This document shows, one piece after another, positions 5,957-50,389 of a stretch of 64,000 bases of DNA (positions are counted from its first letter, which is position 1; the number at the start of each line of letters is the position of its first letter). Source of the stretch: Candidatus Woesebacteria bacterium (GTDB lineage: Bacteria; Patescibacteriota; Microgenomatia; UBA1400; MFAQ01); the NCBI GenBank assembly GCA_035389185.1, contig DAOORK010000001.1, forward strand, positions 759,419 to 823,418, in the 5' to 3' direction. The notes below the pieces were generated by a model. That model did not search any database. It was not told the origin of the DNA and saw only the letters and a program-made list of their open reading frames with translations. Made by a program: the position numbers and the translations under genes.

Positions 5957-6999
5957 TGGCAGTTTCAGCCGATGACAAACTATTTTTAACAAAGCGCCTG
6001 GCAATAATGATCAAAGCGGGAGTGCCGATGGATGAGACCTTGATGACCATGGCCGAACAATCACCATCTGATTTGGCTAAAGTGCTTAATAAAGTAAAAA
6101 AAGATGTAGATAATGGTACGAGTTTGGGAGAAGCATTCGAGAAGTATCCAAAAATATTCGATAAGTTTTTTGTTTCTTTGGTTAAAGCCGGTGATGTTTC
6201 GGGTACTTTGGAAGAAGCCTTGGAGTTTTTGGCGGAACAGATGGGAAAAAATATTCTCCTCAAGAAAAAAGTGCAAGGAGCTTTGGCTTATCCAATGTTG
6301 GTTTTGGCGGCAACTTTTATGATGGGTATTGGTATTTCTTGGTTTGTTTTACCGCAGCTTGTGGACATGTTCGCATCGTTTGAGGTAAATCTTCCTTGGT
6401 CAACAAGATTACTCATGGGTTTTGCTGAGTTTATGAAAAACTACGGCATGATTGCTGTTCCGGCACTAATTGGTGTATTTTTTGCACTAACGGCACTTGT
6501 CCAGATAAAAAGTATAAGGAGGTTGTGGGACAGATTTGTTTTGAAAATACCTTTTTGGGGAAAGGTGGTGATTGATGGCCAGATGGGTGAGTTTAGCCGG
6601 AATATGGGTACCTTACTTAAAAGCGGTATACCGGTAACTGATGCTTTTACCGTGACGGCCAATACACTGTCGAATCGAAAATTTATTGAGGATCTTGGAG
6701 AGGTAAAAGAAGAAGTCCAAGAAGGAAAAACAATTGCCGAAGCCATGAGCCGAAAAGAGTATTGGGAGTTTGGAAAACTAGCGATTCGAATGATTGGTGT
6801 GGGTGAGAAGAGCGGAAATCTGGAGGAAATGTTTGCTTATTTGGCTACGTACTATGAAGAAGAAATTGACAATACAAGTAAAAATTTGACAACACTTTTG
6901 GAACCGGTGTTGTTACTATTCATCGGATTGGTAGTAGGTTTTGTGGCGATGGCGATTATCAGCCCGATCTACACAATGGTGGGTAGTTTGGGAAGTTAA
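5956..6999 (+). CDS. pilC: type IV pilus platform protein PilC/GspF family
   Basis: two T2SSF-like repeats, 3 TM; ATGA overlap with pilB stop (translational coupling). Confidence 0.85.
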   Translation: MAVSADDKLFLTKRLAIMIKAGVPMDETLMTMAEQSPSDLAKVLNKVKKDVDNGTSLGEAFEKYPKIFDKFFVSLVKAGDVSGTLEEALEFLAEQMGKNILLKKKVQGALAYPMLVLAATFMMGIGISWFVLPQLVDMFASFEVNLPWSTRLLMGFAEFMKNYGMIAVPALIGVFFALTALVQIKSIRRLWDRFVLKIPFWGKVVIDGQMGEFSRNMGTLLKSGIPVTDAFTVTANTLSNRKFIEDLGEVKEEVQEGKTIAEAMSRKEYWEFGKLAIRMIGVGEKSGNLEEMFAYLATYYEEEIDNTSKNLTTLLEPVLLLFIGLVVGFVAMAIISPIYTMVGSLGS

Positions 7000-7430: not shown

Positions 7431-9239
7431 ATGAATAAAAAGAGATTACAGTCTGGCTTTGGATTATTGGAGGTGATTTTGGCGTCCGGACTGTGGTTAA
7501 TTTTGGCTGCCGCGGGAACAATGATGCTCGCCGGGAGTTTGAGACTAAATTCACAGTCGACAGATAATGATCAAGCTGTTTTATTGGCTACGGAAGGTTT
7601 GGAAGCGGTTAGAACCATCAAAAAAAATGGATGGATGTCTCCTTTTCTGGCAACCGATTGTTTGGCAGGGTGCGGAGTGGCGACAGTTTCCGGTACTTGG
7701 GGATTTGGAGGATCGAGTAACACTATCGGAAAATACACAAGAAAGATAACCGTAAGCCCGGTGAGCCGAGACACTGAAGGTAATGTTGTGGGAAGCGGTG
7801 GTGCAGTGGACACAAATACATATAAAGTGGAGTCTAAAGTTACTTGGCAGAGAACCCCTGTTGTATCCGGATCGGTGACTTTGATAACGTATTTAACAAA
7901 CTACATTAAGTCAATTGTGTCCACCTTGACGGGGGGGTTGTTAATCTATGGAGATGGAACTACCGTACCGCAGTATCGATTGTTTGATAGGGTAACAAAC
8001 TTTTCGACAGAACAAAGCGGTCCGATCGGAGGAGCAGGGGGTACTTTCCAGATGGATACGTCTCCGATAAAAACTGAGGCTGTTGCCGGTTATGTAACCG
8101 GGTCCGGTGCCCTACAGATAATGTGCTTTGACGGAGTAACCTGGAGTAACGAGTGGAGTGTAAATGTCGGCGGGACGGCTAGCACAAGAAGATTTGATGT
8201 TGCTTATGAAAATAACTCGGGTGATGTGTTGGTGCTTTATAGCGGAAATACAGTTAGTAACGAACTGCGTTACCGAGTCAAGTCTGGGGCAAGTGATTGT
8301 GGAAGCTCTGCCTGGTCGGCAGAAAACAGTTTAAATTCAGCAAGAACAAATGGAGTGATTCATTGGGTGAAAATGGCTGTAGATAGGAGATTATCTTCAG
8401 ACTTGATCGGAGCAATTTGGGCTGATGAAAATGCTGACCTTTCGTCGATGGTTTGGAACGGGAGCGCCTGGGTAAATGAACCTAGTGCACTCCTAGCGAC
8501 AGATCTGGAAGTAGTATCAACGGCACAAGATGTTGAGGATTTTGATTTGGAATATGAATCTTTGTCGGGTGACCTGATGGTTGTTTGGGCAATTTCGGCG
8601 GGGAATAATGGGACAAACGGTGTTAGATATGCGACCTGCACCGGAGGTACGGCTAATTGTACTTGGACACTAAACTTAACACCACCCACTTTTAAAGATG
8701 ATGCCACTAATTTGGACTTGGCTGCTGATCCAATAACTGACCAATTGGTCTTTGCTTCAATTGGAGATGCAGGGTCTGACCTGCAAATAGGATTCTGGGA
8801 TGGAACCGGGTGGTCAAACAAGGCAAATCTGGATACTTCGGCAGGAACTCCACTTGCGGGTACAAAAATAGTTTCTTCGGGCTGGCTGGCAAGCGGTACT
8901 ACCAGTCGTTTTGTGGTGGTGTACACAGACTCATCAGAGAGTGGAATAAATTGGTATGTAAGTAATGCCGCCGGTGTACCAAACGGACAGAAAGAATTTT
9001 TAACTTTACCGGTAATTGGCTATCCTAAAAAATGGATAGAGATTAAAACTGATCCTGTCGATAAGGCTCAACTGATCGCTGTGATTTCTGATGTAAATAA
9101 TGATTTGTATGCAAAAAAACTATTCATGACGACGAAGACAGCTTTTGAATGGAGTGATTTAGAAGGAGGAACGGCACTAGAAACAGGATTGACTCAGTCA
9201 ATCAACAAGCCGTTTGCATTTAGTTTTTGGAAACAATGA
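7431..9239 (+). CDS. large (602 aa) prepilin-like protein
   Basis: N-terminus MNKKRLQSG|FGLLEVILASG (G-1, E+5, hydrophobic helix) followed by ~570-aa Gly/Ser/Thr-rich globular region. Confidence 0.6.
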   Translation: MNKKRLQSGFGLLEVILASGLWLILAAAGTMMLAGSLRLNSQSTDNDQAVLLATEGLEAVRTIKKNGWMSPFLATDCLAGCGVATVSGTWGFGGSSNTIGKYTRKITVSPVSRDTEGNVVGSGGAVDTNTYKVESKVTWQRTPVVSGSVTLITYLTNYIKSIVSTLTGGLLIYGDGTTVPQYRLFDRVTNFSTEQSGPIGGAGGTFQMDTSPIKTEAVAGYVTGSGALQIMCFDGVTWSNEWSVNVGGTASTRRFDVAYENNSGDVLVLYSGNTVSNELRYRVKSGASDCGSSAWSAENSLNSARTNGVIHWVKMAVDRRLSSDLIGAIWADENADLSSMVWNGSAWVNEPSALLATDLEVVSTAQDVEDFDLEYESLSGDLMVVWAISAGNNGTNGVRYATCTGGTANCTWTLNLTPPTFKDDATNLDLAADPITDQLVFASIGDAGSDLQIGFWDGTGWSNKANLDTSAGTPLAGTKIVSSGWLASGTTSRFVVVYTDSSESGINWYVSNAAGVPNGQKEFLTLPVIGYPKKWIEIKTDPVDKAQLIAVISDVNNDLYAKKLFMTTKTAFEWSDLEGGTALETGLTQSINKPFAFSFWKQ

Positions 9240-9757
9240 AAAAACATATTAACAGTTCCGGTTTTAGTTTAATCGAGTTGATTTTGTATGTGGCTCTTTT
9301 GGGAATAATTGTGAGCGGAATGGTGACCTTTGGTTTGAATGTGGTGCAAATAAGAATAAAAAACAGAGTGGAACAAGAAGTAATTGCCAACACTCGTTTG
9401 GTGACAAGAAGAATAAATTATGAGATTCGTAACTCTTCGGCAGTGAACAGTGTTACTGCAGAGAGCATTTCTTTGGCAAGTGGCGACTCTGCGAGGAATC
9501 CAACAGTAATCTCTTTGAGCGGAGGAACAGTGACGATAGGATATGGGAGTACAGGAAGTTGTTCCACAATTGTTCCTTGTCCGCTAACAAGCAGAAATAC
9601 GACAGTACAGAGTTTGTTATTTGCTGATATGAGCAGTGGAGTATCACCCCAATCGGTGAAGTATGAAGTGGTGGTAAAAGGAGAGGTTGCCGGTGCGGGT
9701 AAGTCATATTATTACAAAGAGTACGCGACGGGGAGCGCGGAAGTTAGATCAAAATGA
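9236..9757 (+). CDS. prepilin-like minor pilin
   Basis: MKKHINSSG|FSLIELILYVALLGIIV; ATGA overlap with preceding gene; ORF-track start 9227 is an alternative. Confidence 0.6.
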   Translation: MKKHINSSGFSLIELILYVALLGIIVSGMVTFGLNVVQIRIKNRVEQEVIANTRLVTRRINYEIRNSSAVNSVTAESISLASGDSARNPTVISLSGGTVTIGYGSTGSCSTIVPCPLTSRNTTVQSLLFADMSSGVSPQSVKYEVVVKGEVAGAGKSYYYKEYATGSAEVRSK

Positions 9758-10296
9758 ATACGAGACAAATCTGCCACCCATATTCTTTGTTGGCCACCGA
9801 TAATCCGGCTTCTCCTGCGAAAGCCGGTTATCTCGATACTCGACACGAAATTTTGAACAGTAGTTCAAAACCATGCATTTCGTGTCTGCGTAGCGTGGCA
9901 CAAAGAACAAAGGTTCCGATTGGTAGTATTCATGAAGGGTATGTGGCTTTGGTGACGGTGCTGATTATTGGGGCAGTGATGGTGATTGTGGGCATGGCCG
10001 TGGTGATGAATTCAATTAATACCGGACAAGGGGTGCTATCGGAGATTAGGAAGGAGTCGAGTATTGGTCTGGTAGAGTCGTGCGTTGAGGACGCATTGTT
10101 GAGAATAAATAAGAATAATATATTGGGTTCGAGCATCGTTTTACCTGAAGGTTCGTGTACTGTTACAATAAACTCACAGTCGGGCAGTGATTGGGATTTT
10201 ACAGTCAGCGGTGTTGGGGACGGATACTTGAAGAGCATAAGAGTCGTAGCGTCTCGAACAACAAAGGTGACTGTTATTAGCTGGAAAGAGATATGA
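9754..10296 (+). CDS. putative PilX-like minor pilin/pilus assembly protein (start uncertain)
   Basis: hydrophobic helix YVALVTVLIIGAVMVIVGMAVVM without Glu+5, ~100-aa globular tail; N-terminal 55 residues of the ORF are probably not translated. Confidence 0.35.
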   Translation: MNTRQICHPYSLLATDNPASPAKAGYLDTRHEILNSSSKPCISCLRSVAQRTKVPIGSIHEGYVALVTVLIIGAVMVIVGMAVVMNSINTGQGVLSEIRKESSIGLVESCVEDALLRINKNNILGSSIVLPEGSCTVTINSQSGSDWDFTVSGVGDGYLKSIRVVASRTTKVTVISWKEI

Positions 10297-11507
10297 AAAC
10301 TGCCATTTACATAACCAGAAACAAAGTATGGGCCGGAGATTCTGCCTATGATTGGGATGGGATAAACATGGATGAGGTGTGGATGAGAATCAAGAGAGAA
10401 AAAAAGATTAATGAAGCAAGAATTATTTTGGGTAATGATGTTTCTTTTGTGACATCGATGAGACTAGAGGAGACGATGGTTAATCGGATGAGTGCTCTGC
10501 GGATGGCCAAGTCGTGGTTGCCGTTTGAGATTGACGACGACTGTTTTGATTGGAAAGAAGTAGAGATAGCTCTAGGAGAAAAGTGGCTTCAATTGATTGC
10601 AATACAAAAAGAGTTTTTGACAAGTTTGTCAGCTGCGGTGAAAAAAAACGGCGTGCGGGTGGACATGGTAACGGCAATAGGTGTGCTATTGGCAGACAAA
10701 ACTACGGAGCGAGAAGTGCCGGTAGTAGTGAAATGGACAGGAAAAGAGGACTTGTTGGTGGTTGCTGTCAAAGGATTAGTGGATATTGTGACTAGTGATG
10801 TCAGTGAAGATGATTTAATGGTTTACGCCAAACAAAAATGGGGCTTGGCGGTTAACCCTGAACAACTGAGCTTTAGCGAAGCGGAAACTGATTTAACAAA
10901 AGAGGTTTATGCTGAGAGAGCAAAGGGAGAGGATAGATTGGTACTAAATTTGCCGATATTGAAAGAGATTGTTCTGACGGGAGACGCGAGTATGGGTGCA
11001 GAAAAGGGAAGTTTGGAGACAACAGAAGAACCGAGACCAGAGAAGAAAAAATCTCGCTTGGGACTTTATCTACTTATTTTATTGGTTGTTTTGAGTGTTT
11101 GTGCGGGAATTTTGTGGAAGATAGGGAAACTGCCATTCTTGCCGGGAGAGAGCCGTGAGAAGGTTGATAGAACAGAGGAGGTCGTTAGTCCAACGCCAAC
11201 AGCGAGCCCGACAGAGGAGCCTAAACCAGACTTGTCTTTATTTTCGGTTCAAGTATTGAATGGAAGCGGAGTGAGCGGGGAAGCCGCGAAAGTCAAAGAG
11301 GTGCTGCTGGGGATGGGCTTTACATCGGTGGATGTGGGTAATACAACGACGACTAATGAGAGTTTGATTAGGACAAAAGAAACGGTTCCTTCGTCGGTAG
11401 GTAACCTGGTGATAAAAAGTATTAAAGATTACACACTGATGAACTCAGATGTTTTGACAAGCGATGGGGAATATGATTTGATAATTGTATTGGGTGGTAA
11501 TTATTAA
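10293..11507 (+). CDS. pilus-locus bitopic membrane protein with C-terminal LytR_C-like domain
   Basis: ~250-aa cytoplasmic part, TM LGLYLLILLVVLSVCAGILW, Pro/Thr linker, C-terminal FSVQVLNGSGVSGEAAKVKEVLLGMGFTSVDVGNT...DLIIVLG (LytR_C signature). Confidence 0.45.
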   Translation: MKTAIYITRNKVWAGDSAYDWDGINMDEVWMRIKREKKINEARIILGNDVSFVTSMRLEETMVNRMSALRMAKSWLPFEIDDDCFDWKEVEIALGEKWLQLIAIQKEFLTSLSAAVKKNGVRVDMVTAIGVLLADKTTEREVPVVVKWTGKEDLLVVAVKGLVDIVTSDVSEDDLMVYAKQKWGLAVNPEQLSFSEAETDLTKEVYAERAKGEDRLVLNLPILKEIVLTGDASMGAEKGSLETTEEPRPEKKKSRLGLYLLILLVVLSVCAGILWKIGKLPFLPGESREKVDRTEEVVSPTPTASPTEEPKPDLSLFSVQVLNGSGVSGEAAKVKEVLLGMGFTSVDVGNTTTTNESLIRTKETVPSSVGNLVIKSIKDYTLMNSDVLTSDGEYDLIIVLGGNY

Positions 11508-11518
11508 GACAAAGAATT

Positions 11519-11977
11519 ATGAAGACTAAACATAGTGGTTTTACTTTGATTGAGCTGTTGGTAGTGATTTTGATTATTTCAATTCTTTCGGTAACGGTTT
11601 TTGTGGCCTTGAATCCTTCAAAAAGATTCGCTGATGCTCGGGATGCAAGGAGAACTTCCGATGTGAATTCGATCTTGACGGCGGTTCATGAGTATATCGT
11701 GGATAACGGTGGAGTGTCTCCCTCGGGATTATCAGCTACAGAACGGCAGTTGGGTACAGCGACAACGGGATGCGACGTGAACTGTTTAACTCCTCAAACG
11801 CCGGCGGCCTGTCTGGATTTATCGACTTCTTTGTCTCCTTATTTGAAGACAATACCGACAGATCCAAAAGTAGGAACAGCGGCGATCACGGGTTACAAGA
11901 TTGTAAAAGATGCAAACGGTATGGTTACCGTTACTGCTTGTGCCTCTGAAAGTGCGGCGATTTCGGTTACCAGATAG
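11519..11977 (+). CDS. type IV (major) pilin
   Basis: canonical MKTKHSG|FTLIELLVVILIISILSV prepilin signal with E+5; 152 aa; Cys pair near C-terminus. Confidence 0.8.
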   Translation: MKTKHSGFTLIELLVVILIISILSVTVFVALNPSKRFADARDARRTSDVNSILTAVHEYIVDNGGVSPSGLSATERQLGTATTGCDVNCLTPQTPAACLDLSTSLSPYLKTIPTDPKVGTAAITGYKIVKDANGMVTVTACASESAAISVTR

Positions 11978-12004: not shown

Positions 12005-12895
12005 ATGAGTGAAAGAAAAGTAAAGAAAGCTGTTATCACGGCCGCGGGTTTGGGGACAAGATTCCTACCTGCCACAAAGAATATCCCGAAAGAAATGCTC
12101 CCGATTGTGGATCTGCCAATTATTCACTATATTGCTGAAGAGTGTGTTGAAGCAGGGATTGAAGACATTATTGTGGTGATTCGTCCGGGAAACGAAGCGG
12201 CGATGACCTATTTCTCACCCAATCCTGAGTTGGAACGTCAGCTAGCCGCTACAGGCAAGGAAAAGCAGTTGGAGAGGTATTACAAGGTCGCAGGGAAGGC
12301 TAATTTTATCTTTGTTCACCAAAACACATCATTGCCTTACGGTAACGGTAGTCCTGTGCTGACGGTGAAGAATTTGGTGGGTAACGACCCGTTTGTGGTG
12401 TGCTTTGGAGATGATCTGGTGCTAAACCCGGGTGGACCAGGCGCGGTGAAGCAGATGGTTGATCTGTTTGAGGCTAATGAAGATGCACACGGAATCCTGG
12501 CAACAGTGAGAATGCCACGCGAAGAGATTACCCGATTAGGCATGGTGGAGACGGTGGATGGAACCGACGAAGGCAGGATTAAAAGAGTGGTTGAGAAACC
12601 AAAACTGGAAGAAGTGACATCAGATTTGGCTGAGTTTGGAAGAATGGTGTTTTCACCGGCGATATTTGATTATTTGAAAGCCGATGGAACGGGAAAAGAC
12701 GGGGAGCTATGGCTGATTGATGCAATCGAAAAACTATTAGTGGAGAAACCGGTGTATGCAAAGACAGTTCAAGGTGAGTTTTTGACCACGGGAGATCCAT
12801 TGCGTTTCCTAAAAGCTTCATATAAGTTTGCCATGCAGAGACCGGAAATTGCATCCGACTTGAAAGAGTTCTTGAAAAAAGAGATTTTGGGATAA
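12005..12895 (+). CDS. galU: UTP--glucose-1-phosphate uridylyltransferase
   Basis: KAVITAAGLGTRFLPATKNIPKEMLPIVD nucleotidyltransferase signature; 296 aa. Confidence 0.85.
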   Translation: MSERKVKKAVITAAGLGTRFLPATKNIPKEMLPIVDLPIIHYIAEECVEAGIEDIIVVIRPGNEAAMTYFSPNPELERQLAATGKEKQLERYYKVAGKANFIFVHQNTSLPYGNGSPVLTVKNLVGNDPFVVCFGDDLVLNPGGPGAVKQMVDLFEANEDAHGILATVRMPREEITRLGMVETVDGTDEGRIKRVVEKPKLEEVTSDLAEFGRMVFSPAIFDYLKADGTGKDGELWLIDAIEKLLVEKPVYAKTVQGEFLTTGDPLRFLKASYKFAMQRPEIASDLKEFLKKEILG

Positions 12896-13671: not shown

Positions 13672-13681
13672 CCAAGAAAAA

Positions 13682-13712
13682 CCGCCCCGGTGAGGGGGCG
13701 GTGTTTGTTTTA
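13682..13712. terminator. bidirectional intrinsic terminator ccgccccggtgagggggcgg + U-tract
   Basis: 10-bp GC stem flanked by A-run and T-run; sits between convergent genes. Confidence 0.6.
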
Positions 13713-15029
13713 GGAAACCTCGGCGATCAAGTCGTCGAGAAGCGGAAGAACAGGCTTGGTATAAACCGAGCTGTTTTCAACGATGGTGTTTTTGAGGACC
13801 ATCAAGAGTCTGTCGTACGAGTAGCTCATATAATCGGTCAAGTATGACCAACGAGCGAGATCTTCGCGAGACAGTTTTGAAAAGGCTTTCTCAAGAACGG
13901 CCCATGACTCTTCGAAACGAGGAGCCCGAGAGATACGAAGGAAAAAACTGCGAACCTTCTTTGTGATCAAACTGGGAACGAAGAAGGCAGTCATAACCAC
14001 GATAATCGAAGGTGTAAAGCTTAAACCAAGATCGGTAGCTTGGGCAACTTTGTAGCCCATCAGCCGAGACATGGTCGGGAACAAGTGGTCATCACGACTG
14101 TAAACGCTGTTGCCGAAATTACTGTTGGCAAAGTTATTGATGTGCTGGATAGCGGTTGGAGCAGTTTTTCCATTGCCAATATCAATCATCGCTTTGCGAG
14201 GGGTGACGATAACATCGATCGTCTTTCGGTTGATTTCGTAGAACTCTGAACCACTGAAGTCGTGTTGGTCTGGGCTTTCGGCGACATCGGCGTTGGCCAG
14301 AAGATGGCGTGGCGCTAGTGTGCAACCGTTTGTGTCCAAGCGATCGGCGAAGCGACAGGCAAGGACTGCCCAGCCGTATTTTTTACCTTCGACCTCAACC
14401 AACTCATAGTACCAAGGGTCTCTCTTTGATCCGTCGGCACACTCTACCGTTTTCAGGTAGTGTGTGTGAGAGGTAATGGCGTAGGCGATCAAGAGCCGGA
14501 GATTTTTTTCGAGGATACCGTCGGTGAGCTCGTAGAAGAGCCAGGCGCCGACTTCGGCGTGACCACCAAGCCATTCTGAGTCTTGGTATCGAGGGGTAAT
14601 GGCAGTGCCGATATCGTGAAAAGCACCGGCAATAATGCCAGCGAGGACTTCGGCAGGTTGGTAGGTGGCAACGTTTTTATCCGTGGCCAGAGCGAAGGCG
14701 GCGAGAAGATCGCGACGGGCATGACCGAAGTCGTGTCCAGGACTGCCGGCGTTAGTGAACGGTGACAAAACCTCAATCAGAATACTGAGAGAGGCAGTGT
14801 TTAGGGGCGAGTAGTTCTTCTGAGCCCTTTTTACCAGCCGGATGTAGTCTTCTCGATTGCCGATTTTCCGGAGCAGGTTGATGAATTTGATGATCGTTGG
14901 ACGGTCAACCTGGATGTCCAGGTCTTTATCTTCCAGAGGAGCCCCTGCCTTGGTCATTTGAAAACGAGCAGAAGCATTCTTGACGAGAGAAACAAGACCA
15001 AAATAAATCTTTTTTAGAAAAGCAAACAT
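13710..15029 (-). CDS. HD-superfamily-like metal-dependent phosphohydrolase, paralogue A
   Basis: ordered motifs GHDFGH...AFHDIG...GGHAEVGAWLFY...AITSHTHY...ADRLDTNG (H..HD..H..H..D pattern); strong SD aaggag. Confidence 0.5.
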   Translation of the reverse strand: MFAFLKKIYFGLVSLVKNASARFQMTKAGAPLEDKDLDIQVDRPTIIKFINLLRKIGNREDYIRLVKRAQKNYSPLNTASLSILIEVLSPFTNAGSPGHDFGHARRDLLAAFALATDKNVATYQPAEVLAGIIAGAFHDIGTAITPRYQDSEWLGGHAEVGAWLFYELTDGILEKNLRLLIAYAITSHTHYLKTVECADGSKRDPWYYELVEVEGKKYGWAVLACRFADRLDTNGCTLAPRHLLANADVAESPDQHDFSGSEFYEINRKTIDVIVTPRKAMIDIGNGKTAPTAIQHINNFANSNFGNSVYSRDDHLFPTMSRLMGYKVAQATDLGLSFTPSIIVVMTAFFVPSLITKKVRSFFLRISRAPRFEESWAVLEKAFSKLSREDLARWSYLTDYMSYSYDRLLMVLKNTIVENSSVYTKPVLPLLDDLIAEVS

Positions 15030-15087
15030 TGTGAACTCCTTATGAGATGGGATTGGACGAGAAAAAGATTGTCAACGTACGGTGAGG

Positions 15088-15116
15088 ATTATATCCTATA
15101 TTAAGAGTTTTGTCAA
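15088..15116 (-). promoter_or_regulatory. consensus sigma70-type promoter TTGACA-N17-TATAAT (minus strand) in front of HD paralogue A
   Basis: reverse complement reads ttgacaaaactcttaatataggatataat; perfect -35 and -10 with 17-nt spacer. Confidence 0.55.
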
Positions 15117-15125
15117 CAATCTGGG

Positions 15126-16367
15126 CTAGGAAATGTCGTCGATGATGTCGGTGATTAGGCCTCGAGAGAACTTGAGTACGGGTGAGTCGCTTTGACGAAT
15201 TTTTTGGTGAAGCATATCGAGCCATTCGGGATAGTTTTCTTCGGCATAGGTAAAACCTTTGGCCCAGTGAGATTGTTCTTCGGGAGTCAGAACATCCCAA
15301 AGTTTTTCGACGTCGTTGAGAGTGGACTTGATGACAGGAGAAAGGGACATACGAGTGACAAAGCGACGGAAACGGGGAAAGTCTGGTTTGCCAGTTTGAT
15401 GACGAACGATATCGATCATGGTTTCGGTTTGGTTGATTTTGTAGGTAATAAGCTTTTTCATGACTGGAAACCGGTCGTCGTGCTGACTGTAGGGGGTGAG
15501 CCTTTTGGCACTTAAAGCAAAGTTTTCCATGTGCTTAAGAGTAGAAGGCATATTATTTTCGGAGATAATAGTGTCGGGTTTGAATAGGAAACTAAGGGAT
15601 TCTTTGTTTAGCTCGTACCAACTGTCACCGGTGAAGTCACGACCCTCCTGACGGGAGCCTTCGACGTTGGCAATGATGTGACGACAGAAAAGGGTGACTC
15701 CGTTGGTGTCGAGGCGATCTGAAAAGCGGGTGATCCAGATAGAAACACCGACGGGATGACCGTCGTCTTCAAATAGGTGGTCTACCCAGGGTTGGCGAGT
15801 ATAACCATTCTTGGTTTCAACAGGTTTGAGCTGATGAGTGTGAGCGGCGATAGCATAAGCGGCAAGACGGCGGATGTGCTCGGGGAGATAGGATACAGAG
15901 AGATTATAAAAAAGCCAGGCACCAATCTCGGCATGACCGCATTCCCAGAAGTAGTCCTGATAGCGAGGCCAGATGCCGGTGCCGATATCGTGATAGGCAG
16001 CACTAAAAAAAGCGGCAGTGAGATCGCAAGGATAGGCTTTGGCGGCGTAGGGGTCGGTGCCGGCCATAGCGGCGCCACTTAGCAGGTCGCGATAAAGATG
16101 ACCAAGGTCGTGGCCTGGTTTACCGAGCACAGCATATTGATGAAGATGGTGAAATATGTTTTTGAGAGTTTTTGGTTCGGGAACAAAGTTTGAATCTTGC
16201 TTACAGAGATCGAGATATTTTTGCCGGTCTTCCAGGGGGCGCAGAGTAGAGTCGACCCATTGAGAAATTTCAAGCTGGAATTCTCGACTTTGGAGCTTTT
16301 TTTTGAGAACTTGAGGTGAAAGAGGGTGACGAAAAAAATTAAGGTTGATTTTGAAAGATAAAGGCAT
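15126..16367 (-). CDS. HD-superfamily-like metal-dependent phosphohydrolase, paralogue B
   Basis: GHDLGH...AYHDIG...CGHAEIGAWLFY...AIAAHTHQ...SDRLDTNG; collinear with paralogue A; start set at MPLSFKIN (ORF-track start 16430 would overlap the MBL gene by 37 nt). Confidence 0.5.
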   Translation of the reverse strand: MPLSFKINLNFFRHPLSPQVLKKKLQSREFQLEISQWVDSTLRPLEDRQKYLDLCKQDSNFVPEPKTLKNIFHHLHQYAVLGKPGHDLGHLYRDLLSGAAMAGTDPYAAKAYPCDLTAAFFSAAYHDIGTGIWPRYQDYFWECGHAEIGAWLFYNLSVSYLPEHIRRLAAYAIAAHTHQLKPVETKNGYTRQPWVDHLFEDDGHPVGVSIWITRFSDRLDTNGVTLFCRHIIANVEGSRQEGRDFTGDSWYELNKESLSFLFKPDTIISENNMPSTLKHMENFALSAKRLTPYSQHDDRFPVMKKLITYKINQTETMIDIVRHQTGKPDFPRFRRFVTRMSLSPVIKSTLNDVEKLWDVLTPEEQSHWAKGFTYAEENYPEWLDMLHQKIRQSDSPVLKFSRGLITDIIDDIS

Positions 16368-16393
16368 AAAACAGTTTAGCCTATTTGGATGAA

Positions 16394-16972
16394 TTAGAGA
16401 AGGAAGGACTCTCCGTGGCCAGAGAAACATTCGGTGCCTGATGGAAGTTTGCGGATAGTTTTGAGGGATTTTTGAAGATCTTTGGCACTGGAGTAGGCAT
16501 GGTCGACAGCCCCAACTGAGTCGGCAAAAAGAGTATCGCCAGAGAAGAGATGGGGCTTGCTGTAGAGACAGACGGAGCCTGGGGTGTGACCCGGCGTATG
16601 AATGACAGTAAGCATAGCAGAGCCGATTTTGAGGCTATTGGGGAGGCTCTGGGATGGTGGTAATTTGAGAGGAGGAGCGGAAGAAAAGCGAGCGGCGGAT
16701 TTGGCTGCATTTTGGTAGAGAAAAACGTCTTGGGGATTAAGGTAAATAGGAAGGTTGAAGTTGAGCTTGAGTTCGAGGCAAGCTAGGCAGTGATCGAAGT
16801 GGCCGTGCGTAAGGATAATGCACACAGGCTTGAGCTGAAGGCGGAGAATTTCTTCGGTGATAAAGTCGCCTTCGTCGCCAGGATCAATGATGGCGCAGTC
16901 GCGGGTTTGGGGGTCAAAAAAGAGATAACAGTTTTCGCGCATTTCACCCACGATTAGAGTCTTGATTTCCAT
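16394..16972 (-). CDS. MBL-fold metallo-hydrolase (glyoxalase-II-like)
   Basis: HGHFDHCLAC zinc motif (HxHxDH), HTPGHTPGS, 192 aa. Confidence 0.8.
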   Translation of the reverse strand: MEIKTLIVGEMRENCYLFFDPQTRDCAIIDPGDEGDFITEEILRLQLKPVCIILTHGHFDHCLACLELKLNFNLPIYLNPQDVFLYQNAAKSAARFSSAPPLKLPPSQSLPNSLKIGSAMLTVIHTPGHTPGSVCLYSKPHLFSGDTLFADSVGAVDHAYSSAKDLQKSLKTIRKLPSGTECFSGHGESFLL

Positions 16973-16998
16973 AGTTTGATTGTAACAGCCACAAAAAA

Positions 16999-17018
16999 GC
17001 CCCCGTAAGAACGGGGGC
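16999..17018 (-). terminator. intrinsic terminator gcccccgtaagaacgggggc
   Basis: 7-bp GC stem, U-run on minus strand; follows vWA gene stop. Confidence 0.6.
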
Positions 17019-17028
17019 GGGATTTAAT

Positions 17029-17838
17029 TTAAGGGGTGACAAAGAAATTCGCGGAGCTGACGGGATTGCCAGCTTGGGAATTGTGAACGCGAGAACCGAC
17101 GGAGCTGCTGTAAAGCTTGAGAACTTTGGCAATGCCGTCTTTTGTTTGTTCGACTTTGACGATGTTACCATCGAGAAAGCCCATACTTTTGGCGATCTGC
17201 TCAAATGGGTAATTTTCATTTACGCCAATGAAAGCGGCTACAAAGTGCGGTTTTGTGTTGAATTCTTTGAGGAAAGCTGCGACTTCGATGGCCTTACGCT
17301 TGGAATCGTTATCGCCACCATCGGTAAGAATGAGGGTGACTTCCTGAACTCCGGTGGCGCCGTTGGCAAATAATGTCGAGGCGAAGGTCATGGTCTGGGT
17401 GATGCCGTCGTAGGTGGCGTCGAAGAGGGGGGTTGACCCATCGGTGGTGTAGTCGTTTCGGGTGAGCTCAACGAAGTCTTGAATGCGGATGAAGTCTTGA
17501 ATGGTACGCAGGCCCAAAGAACCACCTCGGTTGGAAAATTCATGAACCGCGATGTATATTTCCTGACCGGTTTTGTTGCGCAGAATTTTGAAATCACCGA
17601 CACAATCGTTGATACCGTTGATGATGGTATCTTCGAAACCTTTGAGCGAATAGGTGGAGTCAACGATGAGGTTGAGAACCAAAGGTGTCACGGACTCGTA
17701 CAGTTCGACCTGGGTGCCGATCGTGCTGGGCAAAGTATTGGCGTTGAGATTGGCAAGCAGTGCCTGAGACGAGGTCTGAGTGATGTGCTTGTTGTTGGCG
17801 GCTTCGATAATTGCCTGTTTGGGATCGTTTGTACTCAT
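17029..17838 (-). CDS. vWA (von Willebrand factor A) domain protein with intact MIDAS
   Basis: DxSxS motif LIVDSTYSL, downstream Thr, TDGGDN motif; 269 aa, no TM. Confidence 0.7.
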   Translation of the reverse strand: MSTNDPKQAIIEAANNKHITQTSSQALLANLNANTLPSTIGTQVELYESVTPLVLNLIVDSTYSLKGFEDTIINGINDCVGDFKILRNKTGQEIYIAVHEFSNRGGSLGLRTIQDFIRIQDFVELTRNDYTTDGSTPLFDATYDGITQTMTFASTLFANGATGVQEVTLILTDGGDNDSKRKAIEVAAFLKEFNTKPHFVAAFIGVNENYPFEQIAKSMGFLDGNIVKVEQTKDGIAKVLKLYSSSVGSRVHNSQAGNPVSSANFFVTP

Positions 17839-17861
17839 ATTTCTCCTTTTTGGGAAAGTAA

Positions 17862-17885
17862 GGGGGAGTTGTCTCCCCCTTTTTG
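17862..17885. terminator. hairpin gggggagttgtctccccc + T5 between isochorismatase-like and vWA genes
   Basis: 7-bp G/C stem with T-run on plus and A-run on minus; may partially insulate vWA from the upstream genes. Confidence 0.35.
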
Positions 17886-17889
17886 AAAA

Positions 17890-18846
17890 CTATCCGATCG
17901 GATCGGTACTCTTGACGAGCTTGAGGCCATGCTTGGTAGAAAACTCCGCGAAGGCCTGATTGGCCATGTCTTCGAAGCTACCAACAGGTGAGGTGCAGTC
18001 TTCCAGGATACGAATCCGAGAAAGAACTTCCGGGGCTTTGGAACCAAAGTAACGAATGATCGAAACGATGGTTTCGTAGACACAGTGACTCTTGGCCTGT
18101 CCAGCGATGTAGATCAAATCGTATTTTTGGAGAAGGTTGAGGAAGTCGCTGTTGATACCGGCGTTTTTGTCACCGCTATAAGGGACTTCAGGTTCCATAA
18201 TGGAGTAGTTCTCTGTTTGGGGAACACTACCTTTGATCTCAAAGTGAGGCTGACTGACACGAGCACCGGAGTGAAAGTAGATGGCTTCCATGAGTGAGGG
18301 TTCGAGGGCATGTTCCGGGGCTCCAAGAGGAGTATGGAACGGCCAAACTGCAAGAGTTTTCTTGCTGTTTTGCTCGAGAGTGGTGAGATAGTATTCACTC
18401 CACTTCATCTTCTTTCCCGGGGCGTATTCGTAGTCGAAATCGAAGATGGGTTTGACCTTACCGTCTTTGAGGTTGGCGAGGGTCACCAGGGTGAAGTTGA
18501 AAGAGTTTACCAGTTCACCGGTTGAAGTGTCGATCCACCAAGAGGGGAAGAAGATCTGCAGAGGCAGATGACTATCCAGACTGGCGGCGATGTAGGTTAA
18601 GTTTTCGACATTGCGATAGATCCACTCGATGGTTCGCTGGGTGTCTGCGACGGCACCAGGAACAGCTAGAGGACGGCCGGGTTCGATAAAACCGATCTGG
18701 GCATCGACCAAGAGGAGCATGACTTTCATTTTGTCTTTGGTGAAGTTGGGGAGCTTGGTGGCGTGGCCAGCGAGGTAAGCTTTTTCAAGCTCCGGGTGGC
18801 GCAGGATACCAACGAGCTCTGGGTGGTAGAAACTAGGGTTTTTCAT
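17890..18846 (-). CDS. isochorismatase-family (cysteine hydrolase) protein
   Basis: LLLVDAQIGF (Asp), ...IAGQAKSHCVYETI (catalytic Cys); 318 aa with extra central insertion; SD aaggag. Confidence 0.6.
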   Translation of the reverse strand: MKNPSFYHPELVGILRHPELEKAYLAGHATKLPNFTKDKMKVMLLLVDAQIGFIEPGRPLAVPGAVADTQRTIEWIYRNVENLTYIAASLDSHLPLQIFFPSWWIDTSTGELVNSFNFTLVTLANLKDGKVKPIFDFDYEYAPGKKMKWSEYYLTTLEQNSKKTLAVWPFHTPLGAPEHALEPSLMEAIYFHSGARVSQPHFEIKGSVPQTENYSIMEPEVPYSGDKNAGINSDFLNLLQKYDLIYIAGQAKSHCVYETIVSIIRYFGSKAPEVLSRIRILEDCTSPVGSFEDMANQAFAEFSTKHGLKLVKSTDPIG

Positions 18847-18857
18847 ATTTCTCCTTT

Positions 18858-20738
18858 TTATGAATGGGTGAGATTGAGATAACTGACTTGATAATCACTA
18901 GTGATGAGGAAGTGTTTCTCCCCACCCAGGTGGTCAATCTTGTCAGAGGAACAAACAATTCTGTCGGTGTTGGGAATGGTATCAAAATTACCATTTTCCA
19001 GGTTTTCGATGACGATTCCTTGATCGGTTGGCCAAAACACTTTATGGTCGTTGAAGGCTAAGGTGTGGAGATTGTTGTTGGGGTAGCCTGATAAAGGAAG
19101 AATACGATCGTAGGTGATCTGCCCGAAGTTATTGATAACGTTGGATAGAACAATCAAACGACCGCCTCGATTAACGGTACGCCGCAGCAGTATTGAGTCT
19201 CGACTAAAATGAACACAAAGATCCTGTAAAGAATCAGAGTTTTTTAGTGGAGGAACCTGTACTTCGTAGCGTTTGCCGTTGCTGATCAGTTGGAACTGGT
19301 ATTCAGCGAAAAAACGAGAAAGAGTAAGAACCAGTTTTCCTTCGCCATCTGCCCAGAACCAGGTTTGATTCGGGGCAATACTTATAGGTAATGAATCACT
19401 TAATACACTGTCGTTTACCAGCCTACTGATGGTGAGGTCACTGCCAGAGAGCTTTAACAGCCCTTGGCTAGTACCGCGGAAAGCGGCGAGTCGATTACCA
19501 AGGTAGATGGAAGTGTTTAGGGGAATCCAGGACGAGCCTGGAGCACTGATGGGGGTTAGGTAAACGATGTCACTGTCTTCGATATTGATGGCCAGATAAT
19601 CGTTACCGACGATGTCGAAACGGATAACTTTACCTTCAGGATCGAAGTTGATCGGTACCTTGACTGCCGTACTTGTTTGGGGGCGAATCCAGAGGAAAAG
19701 ACCGGTTTTTTCTTCGGAGATAGCGTAGAGAGTAGTCCCTTGCATCTTGGCGAAGATGATTCGACCGATACTTTTTATCATGGCTTCAAAATAATAGACA
19801 GGTCTAAAGTCGATGGCTGGAGTTTTGTGAGTACAGACAGGACATGCCTTTCTGGAGTTTGGATAGAAAGACCCACACGAATTACACTCGATGAGAGAGC
19901 TTTGAAAGTTTTTGAGGTCGTCAAGCTTTGGAGCAAGATAGTGATGTTTGGCGAAAACTTCATCAAAAAGGTGAAGTAAGTTATCGTCAATTGTCTCCGG
20001 ATGGGGACACAGTTTGGGGTAATTAACCCCAGATGTGAATAACCAGACTCCTTTTGAGGCCCGATCATGAAACTCAGTATACTTGGGGTGAATCTGCGAG
20101 TATGGATTGACGTTAAAGAGACTCCAGAAAAGGATAGTGTTGAAGCTATACCAGTCTGAGCTTTCGGTGAAGCTGATTTTTCCGGTGCTGACCTCTTTGT
20201 AGAGATCAGGACAAAGAAATAGATCTGTCCATACCGGACAGCGATAGCCTCCCATTTGCCAGGAGTCGGTGTCAAAACTGAAGGTTTCGATACCGTTTCT
20301 ACCGGCAACAAAAGCAATATTCCTGCCTGAAACATCCCCAACAACGATTTGCTGTTGATGAATGAGAGCGATGTCTTTGTAAGCGGAACTGAGGATGGCG
20401 ACTAGAGTAGGAGTGTTGATCTTGAGATCGCGGCGAAGCACGCGGTTGAAAAGCACGCCTGCTTCGCGGAAGTTCTTGGGTAAAAGCTTCATACCGTAGC
20501 CACAAAGGTCGCGACCATTTTTGGTGAGTCTGGACTGAGGAACAATGAAGTTGTTGGGTAGGTGCGGTTTGTTACGCAACATGAACTCAACCTTTTTAAC
20601 CTGGTCGGGTTCAGTTGTCTTCCAGATTTTGATTGCTTGATCGTTATATTTAACGACGACGGCTTGGCCACCATTTCCTAGAGTGTCGTTGACATTCAGG
20701 GAAATTTCTTGGCCATCGAGCTGATATCTTTCAGCCAT
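18858..20738 (-). CDS. protein-kinase-like (ePK-fold) domain protein with Cys4 zinc-ribbon and C-terminal beta-rich (propeller-like) domain
   Basis: Gly loop GNGGQAVVV, Lys in QAIKIWK, catalytic-loop-like VGDVSGRNI (D..N), FDTDSW (DFG-like), SDWYSFNTILF (APE-like); CNSCGSFYPNSRKACPVCTHK zinc ribbon; start codon immediately follows the PP2C stop, with SD inside PP2C 3' end. Confidence 0.6.
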   Translation of the reverse strand: MAERYQLDGQEISLNVNDTLGNGGQAVVVKYNDQAIKIWKTTEPDQVKKVEFMLRNKPHLPNNFIVPQSRLTKNGRDLCGYGMKLLPKNFREAGVLFNRVLRRDLKINTPTLVAILSSAYKDIALIHQQQIVVGDVSGRNIAFVAGRNGIETFSFDTDSWQMGGYRCPVWTDLFLCPDLYKEVSTGKISFTESSDWYSFNTILFWSLFNVNPYSQIHPKYTEFHDRASKGVWLFTSGVNYPKLCPHPETIDDNLLHLFDEVFAKHHYLAPKLDDLKNFQSSLIECNSCGSFYPNSRKACPVCTHKTPAIDFRPVYYFEAMIKSIGRIIFAKMQGTTLYAISEEKTGLFLWIRPQTSTAVKVPINFDPEGKVIRFDIVGNDYLAINIEDSDIVYLTPISAPGSSWIPLNTSIYLGNRLAAFRGTSQGLLKLSGSDLTISRLVNDSVLSDSLPISIAPNQTWFWADGEGKLVLTLSRFFAEYQFQLISNGKRYEVQVPPLKNSDSLQDLCVHFSRDSILLRRTVNRGGRLIVLSNVINNFGQITYDRILPLSGYPNNNLHTLAFNDHKVFWPTDQGIVIENLENGNFDTIPNTDRIVCSSDKIDHLGGEKHFLITSDYQVSYLNLTHS

Positions 20739-21485
20739 TTAAATCTCCTTTTTTTGAATGAAACAGACACTGACATTGTCGATTGTTTCGGCCCTGATAC
20801 AAGCGATGCGGTTGAGATTGAGTTGAAGGCTAACACTTGTCTTTGAGTGGTCGTGAAGTTCCTCAATAAGCTGAGGAAGATCGTTTAGTCCATCCGAGGC
20901 CATACCAACAAGAGAAATGTTTCCTGATGGGAAAAGAGTAGTTTTGAAACCTGTTGGAGTAATTCGATCGATTTCATCGCTGCCGTTGAAGCCAAATCTT
21001 TTATAAAGATTGTAGGCTGGGTAGGCAGGTCTGTTATCAGGTGAATGGATGGTTTCAAAGATTTTGTCGTTTAGATAGAATGATCCATCGCCAACCGAAA
21101 GAAACATGACCTCACTTGGGGTGGCGATAATACCAAGGGCGGTGCACATGAGATAGTTGGCAATAAAGCCAGGTATATCTGTGTCAGAATTATCGAAAAA
21201 TTGACAATCGACTTGCCATTGGAGAAAGTCCAGGTAGTTTTTGAATAGACTACCGGCGAGGGATGGGAGAGGTGTTTTTTGAAGCACCATCTCGCTTGCC
21301 TTCCGGACCAGATAATGGTTGGAAAGTAGCGCACCGACCTCAGAGTATTTCCCCGCGTGGCAACCATCGTTAATAAAAATGACGGCATTTTCTCCATCAG
21401 ACCAAGACGAGATTGCATCTTGGTTGTTTTTTCCTTCACGGAAGTAATTGAGTCCTTGTGCCGATGCACAACTTAGGGTCCACAT
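20739..21485 (-). CDS. PP2C-family Ser/Thr protein phosphatase
   Basis: NQDA, FINDGCHAG, SVGDGSFYL, MASDGL metal-binding motifs; 248 aa. Confidence 0.75.
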   Translation of the reverse strand: MWTLSCASAQGLNYFREGKNNQDAISSWSDGENAVIFINDGCHAGKYSEVGALLSNHYLVRKASEMVLQKTPLPSLAGSLFKNYLDFLQWQVDCQFFDNSDTDIPGFIANYLMCTALGIIATPSEVMFLSVGDGSFYLNDKIFETIHSPDNRPAYPAYNLYKRFGFNGSDEIDRITPTGFKTTLFPSGNISLVGMASDGLNDLPQLIEELHDHSKTSVSLQLNLNRIACIRAETIDNVSVCFIQKKEI

Positions 21486-27351: not shown

Positions 27352-27424
27352 GGGCCGTTAGCTCATCTGGTAGAGCGCTACATTTGCAATGTAGAGGTGG
27401 CCGGTCCGAGTCCGGCACGGTCCA
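27352..27424 (+). tRNA. tRNA-Ala (anticodon TGC)
   Basis: cloverleaf: acceptor GGGCCGT/ACGGTCC with diagnostic G3:U70, D-stem GCTC/GAGC, anticodon loop TTTGCAA, T-stem GCCGG/CCGGC; CC of CCA encoded. Confidence 0.9.
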
Positions 27425-27596
27425 CCCTCCTCATAGGCGAGTAGGTACTGAAATTCGAGAACTGGTGATTGACTCTAAAGAAACTTCCATTTAGAATCGA
27501 CCACGAGCTCTTGGAGCTCTAGTAAGGATTGCTCCTTGAAAAGTGAATAGATTATGCAAGTAGATCGCATGAATTCAAATTCAATTTGAAATTTTT

Positions 27597-30822
<3,226 letters not shown>

Positions 30823-30887
30823 ATTTATCATGCTATCTTTTTGCAATCGTCTATTCACTATTCAGGGAGTAATACATACTTTAATAT

Positions 30888-30961
30888 CGTATTAGGTATC
30901 AAGTATTAAGTATTATGTATTGGGAAATGCATAATACGTACTGCATAATACGTAATACGAG
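30888..30961. repeat. palindromic array of GTATTA(N)GTATTATGTAT-family repeats in 23S-5S spacer
   Basis: cgtattaggtatcaagtattaagtattatgtatt ... cataatacgtactgcataatacgtaatacg (second half is reverse complement of first). Confidence 0.6.
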
Positions 30962-31033
30962 AAACCTTGAAATTTGATAAACGATTATCACTGGAGAAGA
31001 TAGGAGAGAATTAATAACTTTTCTCTATTATCT

Positions 31034-31153
31034 TGTCCGGTGATCTGAGCGATTTGGAACCACCTCTTCCCATTTCGAACAGAGAAGTGAAACAGGTCAG
31101 CGTCGATGATAGTGACTGGGCAACCTTTTGCGAAAGTAGATCATCGCCGGGCA
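31034..31153 (+). rRNA. rrf: 5S rRNA
   Basis: CCATTTCGAACAGAGAAGTGAAAC and GCGAAAGTAG conserved blocks; terminal helix TGTCCGG/CCGGGCA; ~120 nt. Confidence 0.85.
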
Positions 31154-49528: not shown

Positions 49529-50389
49529 CTACATTAAATCTGAATTAATTAAGAAACAAAGGTATGAATAGATTTGGAGCATCTGGCCGTTGTCAGTTCT
49601 TTCTTGTAAAACAGTATAAGCATTTTTGGGGTTAAAAAACTGTCTGTTAGTCGTTTCTAAGGGTATCCATTTCTTGTGATATTGTGTGATGTGTGATGTG
49701 GTTAACGGAATTTGAGAGACTGGCGGAAATTCTGAAATTGCTTGCCCAGTCAGATTGGTAACTTTGATATACCCAAAGACCCTGATGTTGTTAATTTCAA
49801 CACCACCTTCTTCTTGGGCTTCTCTTTGAAGTGTCTCTTGCCATGTTTCTCCATTTTCGATGTGTCCACCAAGAGGATTCCACCATCCATTTTTATCGAA
49901 GGTAAGCAATATACCCTTGTCATTTTCGGAAAAAGTAAGGGGAGTTGAGATATAAATATCAGAAGGGAGAATCTTACTTGGATGAAAAACGACATCTGCA
50001 GTAAGGTTACCTTTCCTGATGGTATAAGGGATGAACTTTCCTTGTTGAAGAAGATTATTTTTAATTTGATTGAGATCTATGTTGGATGGAATATCAATTG
50101 TTTTGGGATTAAGGTTGTTTTTGGGGAAAAGCAGTTTTGCTACAGAAAAACCTGCATAATTAAGAGAAATAATGTCATTTGAAGATTTTTGATGTTTTTC
50201 AATGAGACTTAGTAATTTCCAGAGATATTCTCTAATCGAAGGAGCGCTCCACTTTTTTCTTGAATCAAGGTCGATATCGGACAAATTTGATACAGGCTGA
50301 GAAATACTATCTGCTGATATATCCAGGGGGAATGGGATAACTTTTGTCAGTGGAAAACCCTTAGTTGAAAGTTGAAGAGAAACAGGCAT
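49529..50389 (-). CDS. NUDIX hydrolase domain protein with N-terminal extension
   Basis: Nudix box GGHIENGETWQETLQREAQEEGG in C-terminal half. Confidence 0.65.
   Translation of the reverse strand: MPVSLQLSTKGFPLTKVIPFPLDISADSISQPVSNLSDIDLDSRKKWSAPSIREYLWKLLSLIEKHQKSSNDIISLNYAGFSVAKLLFPKNNLNPKTIDIPSNIDLNQIKNNLLQQGKFIPYTIRKGNLTADVVFHPSKILPSDIYISTPLTFSENDKGILLTFDKNGWWNPLGGHIENGETWQETLQREAQEEGGVEINNIRVFGYIKVTNLTGQAISEFPPVSQIPLTTSHITQYHKKWIPLETTNRQFFNPKNAYTVLQERTDNGQMLQIYSYLCFLINSDLM

Follow-up and report, generated by a model that had tools for sequence, protein, structure and literature searches.

Bacillus subtilis YpgQ, a small HD-domain protein, is a Mn-dependent (d)NTP pyrophosphohydrolase. 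Proteins of the YpgQ/YedJ/2PQ7 type (PF01966), which comprise about 200 aa, are mononuclear enzymes with four metal ligands, and the six-residue set H..HD..H..H..D diagnoses a dinuclear HD site (PMC8177086). YqeK, PgpH, HD-GYP proteins and the Cas3 HD domain share an extended H..HD..H..H(H)..D ligand pattern. Here we describe HD-A and HD-B, two neighbouring genes for divergent HD-domain proteins in a 64-kb stretch of a metagenome-assembled Candidatus Woesebacteria genome (Microgenomates; contig DAOORK010000001.1; "the window", in whose coordinates all positions are given unless a locus is named). Their products belong to a branch of the known HD superfamily that is uncharacterised, extended in structure and found mainly or only in the candidate phyla radiation (CPR). 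The best explanation, to which we give about even confidence, is that the family consists of metal-dependent, probably binuclear phosphohydrolases acting on nucleotides or nucleotide-sugar-derived phosphates and encoded in a variable envelope sugar-nucleotide cluster of HD, Nudix and metallo-β-lactamase (MBL)-fold genes. In the window, the MBL gene, HD-B and HD-A are three consecutive minus-strand open reading frames (ORFs), with the following features in the order of transcription:

16999..17018, minus strand: terminator-like hairpin (GCCCCCG...CGGGGGC then TTTTTT) between a VWA gene and the MBL gene
16394..16972, minus strand: small, glyoxalase-II-like MBL-fold hydrolase, 192 aa, with an HxHxDH motif
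15126..16367, minus strand: HD-B, 413 aa (MPLSFK...), the B-type paralogue, with the start as in the public annotation (P0032)
15088..15116, minus strand: perfect TTGACA-N17-TATAAT promoter of the sigma-70 type for HD-A, which begins 10 nt past the HD-B stop codon
15036..15041, minus strand: Shine-Dalgarno sequence AAGGAG, 6 nt before the HD-A ATG
13710..15029, minus strand: HD-A, 439 aa (ORF call), of the A-type clade of the divergent HD-domain family
13681..13702, no strand assigned: GC-rich hairpin with T-runs on both strands, resembling a bidirectional terminator that would close the HD-A transcript

A preliminary description of the locus had regarded the two ORFs of about 430 aa as clear paralogues, and both this view and its coordinates were borne out. 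HD-A and HD-B aligned with 35% identity over 388 aa (BLASTP, E 4e-75), and all motifs listed for the pair were found, with the blocks GHDxGH, HDIG, GHAExGAWLFY, AIxxHTH, (A/S)DRLDTNG and RHxxAN being collinear in both proteins. As judged from their sequences, the two are true paralogues. The longest ORF of HD-B would extend to 16430 (15126..16430, 434 aa); the start at 16367 was taken because the N-termini of homologues and the public annotation agree on it. HD-A begins with an amphipathic-looking helix, and its protein is annotated publicly as hypothetical (P0001, 100% identical; tags PLI45_04430 and PLI45_04435). In a neighbour-joining tree, the A-type copies formed a separate, long-stemmed clade and the B-type copies stood nearer to the single-copy genes of Collierbacteria, indicating that the duplication is old. 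HD-A is under purifying selection, as seen against its 90% identical orthologue (dN 0.065, dS 0.226, dN/dS 0.29, for nonsynonymous and synonymous rates).

The family to which both proteins belong is small and sharply bounded: when 1.84 billion cluster representatives were searched with a HMMER profile, 239 clusters were obtained at E ≤ 1e-3, 221 of which had E ≤ 1e-10. Among 5.8 billion proteins, a word-indexed search retrieved only 46 relatives, none of them with a Pfam domain. The few named members come from Woesebacteria, Collierbacteria or the "Patescibacteria group", and the family is likely confined to CPR; some loci carry the labels "uncultured Pseudomonadales", "Spirochaetia" or "Sulfotelmatobacter". 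Long fusion members (728–991 aa) were dropped as a functional clue, since they showed no additional Pfam domain and N-terminal extensions unrelated to the Nudix protein c2 described below. A literature search combining HD, Nudix, dTDP-rhamnose and Patescibacteria returned no papers.

Placement of the pair in the HD superfamily, yet outside its curated families, was likewise confirmed, with all profile scores of HD-A and HD-B lying below the respective cut-offs. Some distant members (P0098, 23.6 bits; P0121, 25.9 bits) exceed the Pfam HD threshold. Against the Cas3-HD profile (NCBIfam TIGR01596) the two proteins scored 22.1 and 22.9 bits at a cut-off of 43.45, and the NCBIfam HDIG profile was not reached either. 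No Pfam or NCBIfam match of either protein to dGTPase, RelA/SpoT or HD-GYP was obtained, PHROGs gave no match, PADLOC reported nothing for the pair past the sub-threshold Cas3-HD, and single-sequence phmmer searches of PDB sequences retrieved nothing relevant. For SAMHD1, Foldseek probabilities of 0.12–0.28 with a root-mean-square deviation above 13 Å were in line with the missing dGTPase profile match. The HHExxDGxGYP motif of HD-GYP proteins was found in neither protein nor in the family consensus, and the HD-GYP protein PA4781 matched with a Foldseek probability of 0.28. The proposal that the motif order departs from that of the known HD classes thus holds at the level of families; at the level of motifs it does not, as the order is the canonical H..HD..H..H..D.

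Conservation was scored over 169 full-length family representatives (HD-A numbering). Near-universal residues were H99, H103, R106, D107, H138, D139, R147, H157, E159, H188, R226, D229, R230, D232, R241, D314 and W394, with values of 0.99 for H99, H103 and H188, 1.00 for H138, H157 and D229, and 0.97 for D139. The H...HD...D motif of the HD superfamily (H103, H138-D139, D229; 0.97–1.00 conserved) is present in both window copies, and H157 and H188, which lie between the HD and D motifs, complete the six-ligand set that marks dinuclear sites. H103, H138-D139, H157, H188 and D229 thus probably constitute a two-metal HD site. H99 occupies the place of the first histidine in the H-N-x-x-H motif of class I phosphodiesterases (PDEs). 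Five arginines are near-universal as well (R106, R147, R226, R230, R241; at least 0.98 for R147, R230 and R241), and so many invariant arginines suggest a polyphosphate-bearing substrate. HD-A and HD-B each keep every family-invariant residue, and both are probably active.

An AlphaFold2 model of HD-A, built from a 30-sequence alignment, was of high confidence (predicted local distance difference test, pLDDT, 90.9; predicted template modelling score, pTM, 0.87) and displays the all-alpha HD fold. The top Foldseek matches in the PDB were almost all HD proteins, namely Ddi2, YpgQ, 2PJQ, 3B57, PPX/GppA HD domains, YedJ and PgpH, with probabilities of 0.9–0.98 for the top HD matches and TM-scores up to 0.65 relative to the targets of about 200 residues. 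The preliminary assignment to the HD superfamily was upheld as to fold; the matches as such are weak. Since they are limited to HD proteins of about 200 residues, the known fold explains only the N-terminal half of HD-A (approximately residues 90–250), and the C-terminal ~190 residues are family-specific and gave no structural match.

Compared with the YpgQ/YedJ/2PQ7 type, the family shares the HD fold, an HDxxHxxR-like motif I (GHDxGHxxRD in HD-A and HD-B) and an ADRLD-like motif V, and the YpgQ-type structures 5DQW, 3GW7, 2PJQ, 3B57, 2QGS and 3DTO were among its best Foldseek matches (TM-scores 0.39–0.65 relative to target). A profile comparison with PDB sequences aligned GHDxGHxxR, HDI, HAExGA and ADRLD with the small HD hydrolase 2PQ7, a similarity that is itself insignificant (E 0.26). 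The likeness to YpgQ amounts to resemblance only, as 5DQW matched with E 0.36 and a TM-score of 0.47 relative to target. In contrast to these short enzymes, HD-A and HD-B comprise about 420–440 aa, possess two additional universal histidines (H157, H188) and carry the C-terminal half of about 190 aa. In our reading, the family is related, though very distantly, to phosphohydrolases of the YpgQ/YedJ type and has gained a second metal site. Unlike YqeK, PgpH, HD-GYP proteins and Cas3 HD domains, HD-A and HD-B reach no curated profile threshold, lack a 7TM or helicase fusion and belong to a family without CRISPR or second-messenger neighbours. The same profile comparison aligned GHDxGH...HD with the H-N-x-x-H...HD of PDE8A (E 0.005), suggesting an equivalent pairing of acid and metal histidines; only about 65 residues align, however, and the remaining PDE fold and its ligand-binding residues are unmatched.

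To place the pair in its genomic context, we collected 45 loci, called and clustered their ORFs and confirmed key clusters with Pfam. The arrangements most relevant to the window are as follows:

Window: MBL, HD-B, HD-A
L045 (closest relative, HD-A 90% identical): MBL, promoter, HD-A, without HD-B
L005 (62% identical): MBL, a 273-aa HD gene on the other strand, HD-B, HD-A
L001 (54% identical): MBL, the 273-aa HD gene, HD-B, the 266-aa gene c2, HD-A
Collierbacteria loci: c2, then a single HD gene

The question of pair versus single copy, raised in the preliminary description, is answered by a range of arrangements: B-Nudix-A, B-A, A alone after MBL, or a single copy. The tandem is thus no fixed unit, and its copy number varies among relatives. 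Orthologues of the MBL gene stand near HD genes in Woesebacteria and Collierbacteria loci, and c2 was found directly 5′ of the HD gene in 19 loci. Pfam NUDIX was detected in three of 27 c2 members (best E 4e-6); the other 24 miss it, and most c2 members have a degenerate Nudix box. An AlphaFold2 model of c2 (pLDDT 88) matched ADP-ribose pyrophosphatase, a Bdellovibrio nucleoside diphosphate (NDP)-sugar hydrolase and GDP-mannose hydrolase (E ~4e-10, probability 1.0). From the Pfam matches, the model and its structural matches, c2 was assigned to the NDP-sugar-hydrolase branch of the Nudix fold. NudF, YffH/NudK and the Bdellovibrio enzyme thus represent the nearest known family of c2 and not of the HD proteins; the Nudix fold is unrelated to HD, and c2 is missing from the window.

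Neighbours were counted over 31 loci de-duplicated at 90% identity. A Nudix gene adjoins the HD gene in 11 of these, and rml or NTP_transferase genes lie within five genes of it in 14, both being raw counts without the background frequency in these small genomes; several of the loci outside these counts were too short to judge. Distant family members stand, in varied arrangements, beside rmlA, rmlB, rmlC, rmlD or nucleotidyltransferase genes (L013, L019, L023, L033, L035, L037, L044), and one shared arrangement with rml or nucleotidyltransferase genes near the HD gene recurs in L018, L021, L022 and L042. The HD gene of L021, L022 and L042 forms a divergent pair with a Nudix gene that is canonical and distinct from c2; the L042 Nudix gene was rejected as a c2 member because the c2 profile fails to detect it. 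A 275-aa ORF in L044 looks spurious and was set aside. Distant homologues of c2 are themselves located within rmlABCD clusters. The window holds a GalU/RmlA-like nucleotidyltransferase gene at 12005..12895, four genes downstream. In L016, HD-B and c2 are followed by a gene that shares with HD-A of L001 the promoter, a homologous leader of about 200 nt and the first ~8 codons. The protein body encoded by this third gene is a canonical Nudix hydrolase with 34% identity to the L042 type (E 3.5e-21) and no relationship to HD-A. A Nudix gene has thus replaced HD-A in situ, which speaks for comparable roles of HD-A and a Nudix pyrophosphatase.

On the plus strand at 7431-11977, the window also contains type IV pilin-like or pseudopilin genes in a row, which encode an N-terminal GFTLIELLVV-type motif, together with a gene for a 404-aa LytR_C-family protein (assigned via homology to a Pfam-annotated L001 orthologue). 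These pilin-like and LytR_C genes flank the HD locus in relatives, too.

The perfect TTGACA-N17-TATAAT reported between the two copies, in the 96-nt spacer separating HD-B and HD-A, was found as described, so that the downstream copy has its own promoter. It is the sole perfect instance in the window (0.03 expected by chance; present in three of 100 shuffles). At the same place, promoters were kept in four relatives, reading TTGACA-N17-TATACT in L001 and L005 and TTGACA-N17-TACAAT in L016 and L045, and the conserved promoter directly follows the stop codon of whichever gene precedes the A-type gene. Because the hexamers are kept, the promoter of the A-type gene is regarded as ancestral and not as a quirk of one genome. 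No terminator-like GC hairpin was found between HD-B and HD-A. Only 26 nt separate the end of the MBL gene from the HD-B start, and the two genes are probably co-transcribed. We infer the unit order terminator, MBL, HD-B, consensus promoter, HD-A, terminator, a layout in which HD-A would receive both read-through transcription and transcription from its own strong, conserved promoter. An extended -10-like element, TGTTACAAT, was noted at 16979-16987 (minus strand), right after the terminator hairpin and ending 6 nt before the MBL ATG at 16972; from this proximity the MBL/HD-B mRNA could be leaderless. The MBL protein itself, correctly placed upstream on the same strand by the preliminary description, matched Pfam Lactamase_B (E 2e-25), and its designation as glyoxalase-II-like stands as a likeness only, for it remains below the glyoxalase II equivalog cut-off (GloB, TIGR03413: 77.4 vs 200.8 bits).

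In relatives, the leaders between promoter and A-type gene span 130–200 nt and contain a conserved hairpin, while the window leader measures about 52 nt and is devoid of the CCGTATATTCACGG hairpin that its 90% identical relative L045 still has. A tblastn search of the window with c2 and the 273-aa HD protein found nothing. Judging from these comparisons, the window genome has lost both the Nudix gene of the relatives and their leader hairpin, which has a regulatory appearance. Loci of the Collierbacteria type possess a conserved leader of about 150 nt 5′ of the HD gene, which is missing from the window:

Collierbacteria-type leaders: L003:7822-8003, L006:7487-7652, L007:7435-7640, L009:7635-7793
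Further Collierbacteria-type leaders: L011:1344-1525, L012:100-280, L020:18-142

In these leaders, a hairpin of locus-variable sequence lies within an invariant long-range helix of 8 bp (GGTTCGAC/GTCGAACC), after which come CCCCTTCCCC and the ACCGTTAACCCGGTT hairpin. Fold z-scores ranged from -2.4 to -4.2. RNAalifold predicted 12 pairs over the seven leaders with zero covariation, as expected from the invariance of the stems, and an Rfam scan of the conserved L001 and L003 leaders matched no family. We regard the Collierbacteria-type leader as a candidate cis-regulatory RNA.

A further repeated element in relatives, which we term the promoter cassette, consists of TTGACA-N17-TATACT followed by CAGACTTACAAAGTCC (5′ hairpin GACTT-ACA-AAGTC) and recurs before several unrelated adjacent genes:

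Promoter cassette in L001: 7795-7860, 9420-9485, 10372-10440
Promoter cassette in L016: ~2262-2330, ~3425-3490
Promoter cassette in L006: ~6360-6425
Promoter cassette in L007: ~6680-6740

The window shows one weak match to it, at 35956. The cassette may be a shared 5′ stabiliser, an operator or a mobile promoter element.

Taken together, these data are best explained by the phosphohydrolase function stated at the outset. In this scheme, the arginine-rich two-metal site would bind a polyphosphate-bearing, nucleotide-type substrate and hydrolyse a phosphoester or phosphoanhydride bond, and the enzymes would work at the cell envelope in the turnover or salvage of nucleotides or nucleotide sugars, beside the NDP-sugar-type Nudix and MBL hydrolases. 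The envelope role is suggested by the recurrent Nudix and rmlABCD/nucleotidyltransferase neighbours and by the replacement of HD-A by a Nudix gene. Several points weigh against this explanation. HD oxygenases and nucleases share the six-ligand motif, so that the chemistry is not fixed by sequence, and the substrate proposed for the HD enzymes is a guess. HD-A and HD-B score only 16.4 and 17.0 bits against Pfam HD (PF01966), below the gathering threshold of 22, and no PDB match of the HD-A model reached E ≤ 1e-3 in Foldseek, all being at 0.2 or above. Much of the neighbour evidence stems from related CPR genomes, and several loci (such as L018, L021, L022 and L042 with their one arrangement) are of common descent, so that the independent observations are fewer than the loci; the neighbour counts are raw as well. 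Moreover, no Nudix gene is located next to the HD pair in the window; the nearest Nudix-box ORFs lie about 33 kb away and are unrelated to c2 or the L042-type Nudix gene according to BLAST:

49529-50389 and 50391-50915, minus strand: neighbouring ORFs, each with a Nudix box (GHIENGETWQETLQREAQEEGGV and GHPELGETFVETAVREVSEE), in a region of low GC content (0.35 at 48-54 kb)

Three other functions were considered, all of which are less well supported by the genomic context. An unlikely one is that of a phosphodiesterase for cyclic (di)nucleotides or linear dinucleotides, similar to PgpH, HD-GYP proteins or class I PDEs and active in second-messenger turnover. The dinuclear-type motif with HxH at the fourth position does resemble the PDE pattern H..HD..H..HH..D, the alignment with PDE8A falls into its catalytic domain, and PgpH and PA4781 appeared among the Foldseek matches. 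The probabilities of the PgpH/HD-GYP matches were low, however (0.28–0.54), and their TM-scores poor; a GYP motif is lacking, the partners are Nudix and rml genes instead, and no cyclase, GGDEF or DAC gene was present in any annotated neighbourhood.

Still less probable is the assumption that HD-A and HD-B are defence nucleases, that is, Cas3-HD-like DNases or RNases serving as effectors of the adjacent module of VWA, Ser/Thr kinase-zinc ribbon and PP2C proteins. This TerY-P-like block (17029-21485 overall) lies immediately upstream:

17029-17838, minus strand: VWA protein
17890-18846, minus strand: 318-aa protein, weakly isochorismatase-like
18858-20738, minus strand: Ser/Thr-kinase-like protein of 626 aa whose kinase domain is followed by a CxxC...CxxC zinc ribbon
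20739-21485, minus strand: PP2C phosphatase

TerY-P modules are associated with restriction and defence systems (PMC10542128), and weak Cas3-HD matches were returned by PADLOC (E 4e-6 to 2e-5) as well as by TIGR01596 (22–23 bits), the latter reaching about half of the curated cut-off. PADLOC revealed no helicase, Cascade or other defence gene, there was no PHROG match, and no Cas3 helicase, Cascade or CRISPR array was found in the window neighbourhood or in relatives, nor any CRISPR family in an Rfam gathering scan of the window. The syntenic loci of relatives lack the whole block, and their MBL gene stands next to the deacetylase and amidase genes that in the window are found beyond the block. 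Since the flanks of the relatives skip it, the block is probably an insertion, namely a module for signalling or defence, and no part of the HD system; together with the terminator-like hairpin between the VWA and MBL genes, this led us to reject it as a component. The conserved neighbours of the HD family are housekeeping and envelope genes, and the nucleotide-signalling or defence context suggested in the preliminary description found no support: Cas3-HD stayed sub-threshold in PADLOC, the block is non-syntenic and set off by the hairpin, and the conserved partners are NDP-sugar-type Nudix and dTDP-rhamnose/nucleotidyltransferase genes.

MIOX, PhnZ and TmpB use the same H..HD..H..H..D six-ligand set (PMC8177086), and the HD genes stand close to sugar-nucleotide genes, as would suit an HD-domain di-iron oxygenase modifying a sugar or phosphonate of envelope glycan synthesis. 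This function is nevertheless the most improbable of the three, given that neither sequence nor fold matched MIOX, PhnZ or TmpB, that the many invariant arginines, like H99 with its resemblance to PDEs, favour phosphate chemistry, and that in one relative the place of HD-A is taken by a Nudix hydrolase. An O2-dependent enzyme is also less likely in CPR bacteria, which are mostly anaerobic fermenters.

Two further features of the window were recorded. GC skew is strongly positive on the plus strand throughout 1-64000 (0.08–0.41 per 2 kb), with a monotonic cumulative skew, and stays positive across 12.9-21.5 kb, where the genes lie on the minus strand. Such strand asymmetry is unusually strong. 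At 27352-31152 (plus strand), tRNA-Ala(TGC), 23S rRNA (27599-30820) and 5S rRNA follow each other in this order. The 23S rRNA match extends over 3222 nt compared with a 2925-nt model, and the gene therefore probably contains an insertion of about 300 nt. The window contains no 16S gene, and the run is directly preceded by protein-coding ORFs.

Returning to the HD family as probable phosphohydrolases, a more far-reaching view is that HD proteins, their Nudix partners (c2 and L042 types) and the MBL hydrolase constitute an unrecognised modular CPR cassette for nucleotide(-sugar) turnover or salvage. The cassette would be tied to dTDP-rhamnose and envelope glycan synthesis, HD and Nudix bodies could take each other's place behind a common promoter, leader and N-terminal helix, and Collierbacteria-type genomes would use an undescribed structured 5′ leader, possibly a riboswitch. 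We consider this combination of assumptions, taken as a whole, tentative and rather doubtful.

CPR bacteria (Patescibacteria) have tiny genomes, lack de novo nucleotide synthesis and depend on salvage, and most of their conserved genes are hypothetical. If the family represented a generic house-cleaning hydrolase, the finding would be an ordinary one. The repeated linkage to NDP-sugar-type Nudix hydrolases and rhamnose genes points to pool management for the envelope, and the HD family, with its one or two copies and consensus promoter, is a testable candidate for the management of nucleotide or sugar-nucleotide pools in CPR. Nothing contradicts a hydrolase of nucleotide metabolism, and the family is a reasonable target for biochemistry in view of its conserved linkage to Nudix and rml genes, the exchange of HD for Nudix and the structured leaders. 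It would add a structurally distinct branch, with a six-ligand site and a new C-terminal domain, to the HD superfamily.

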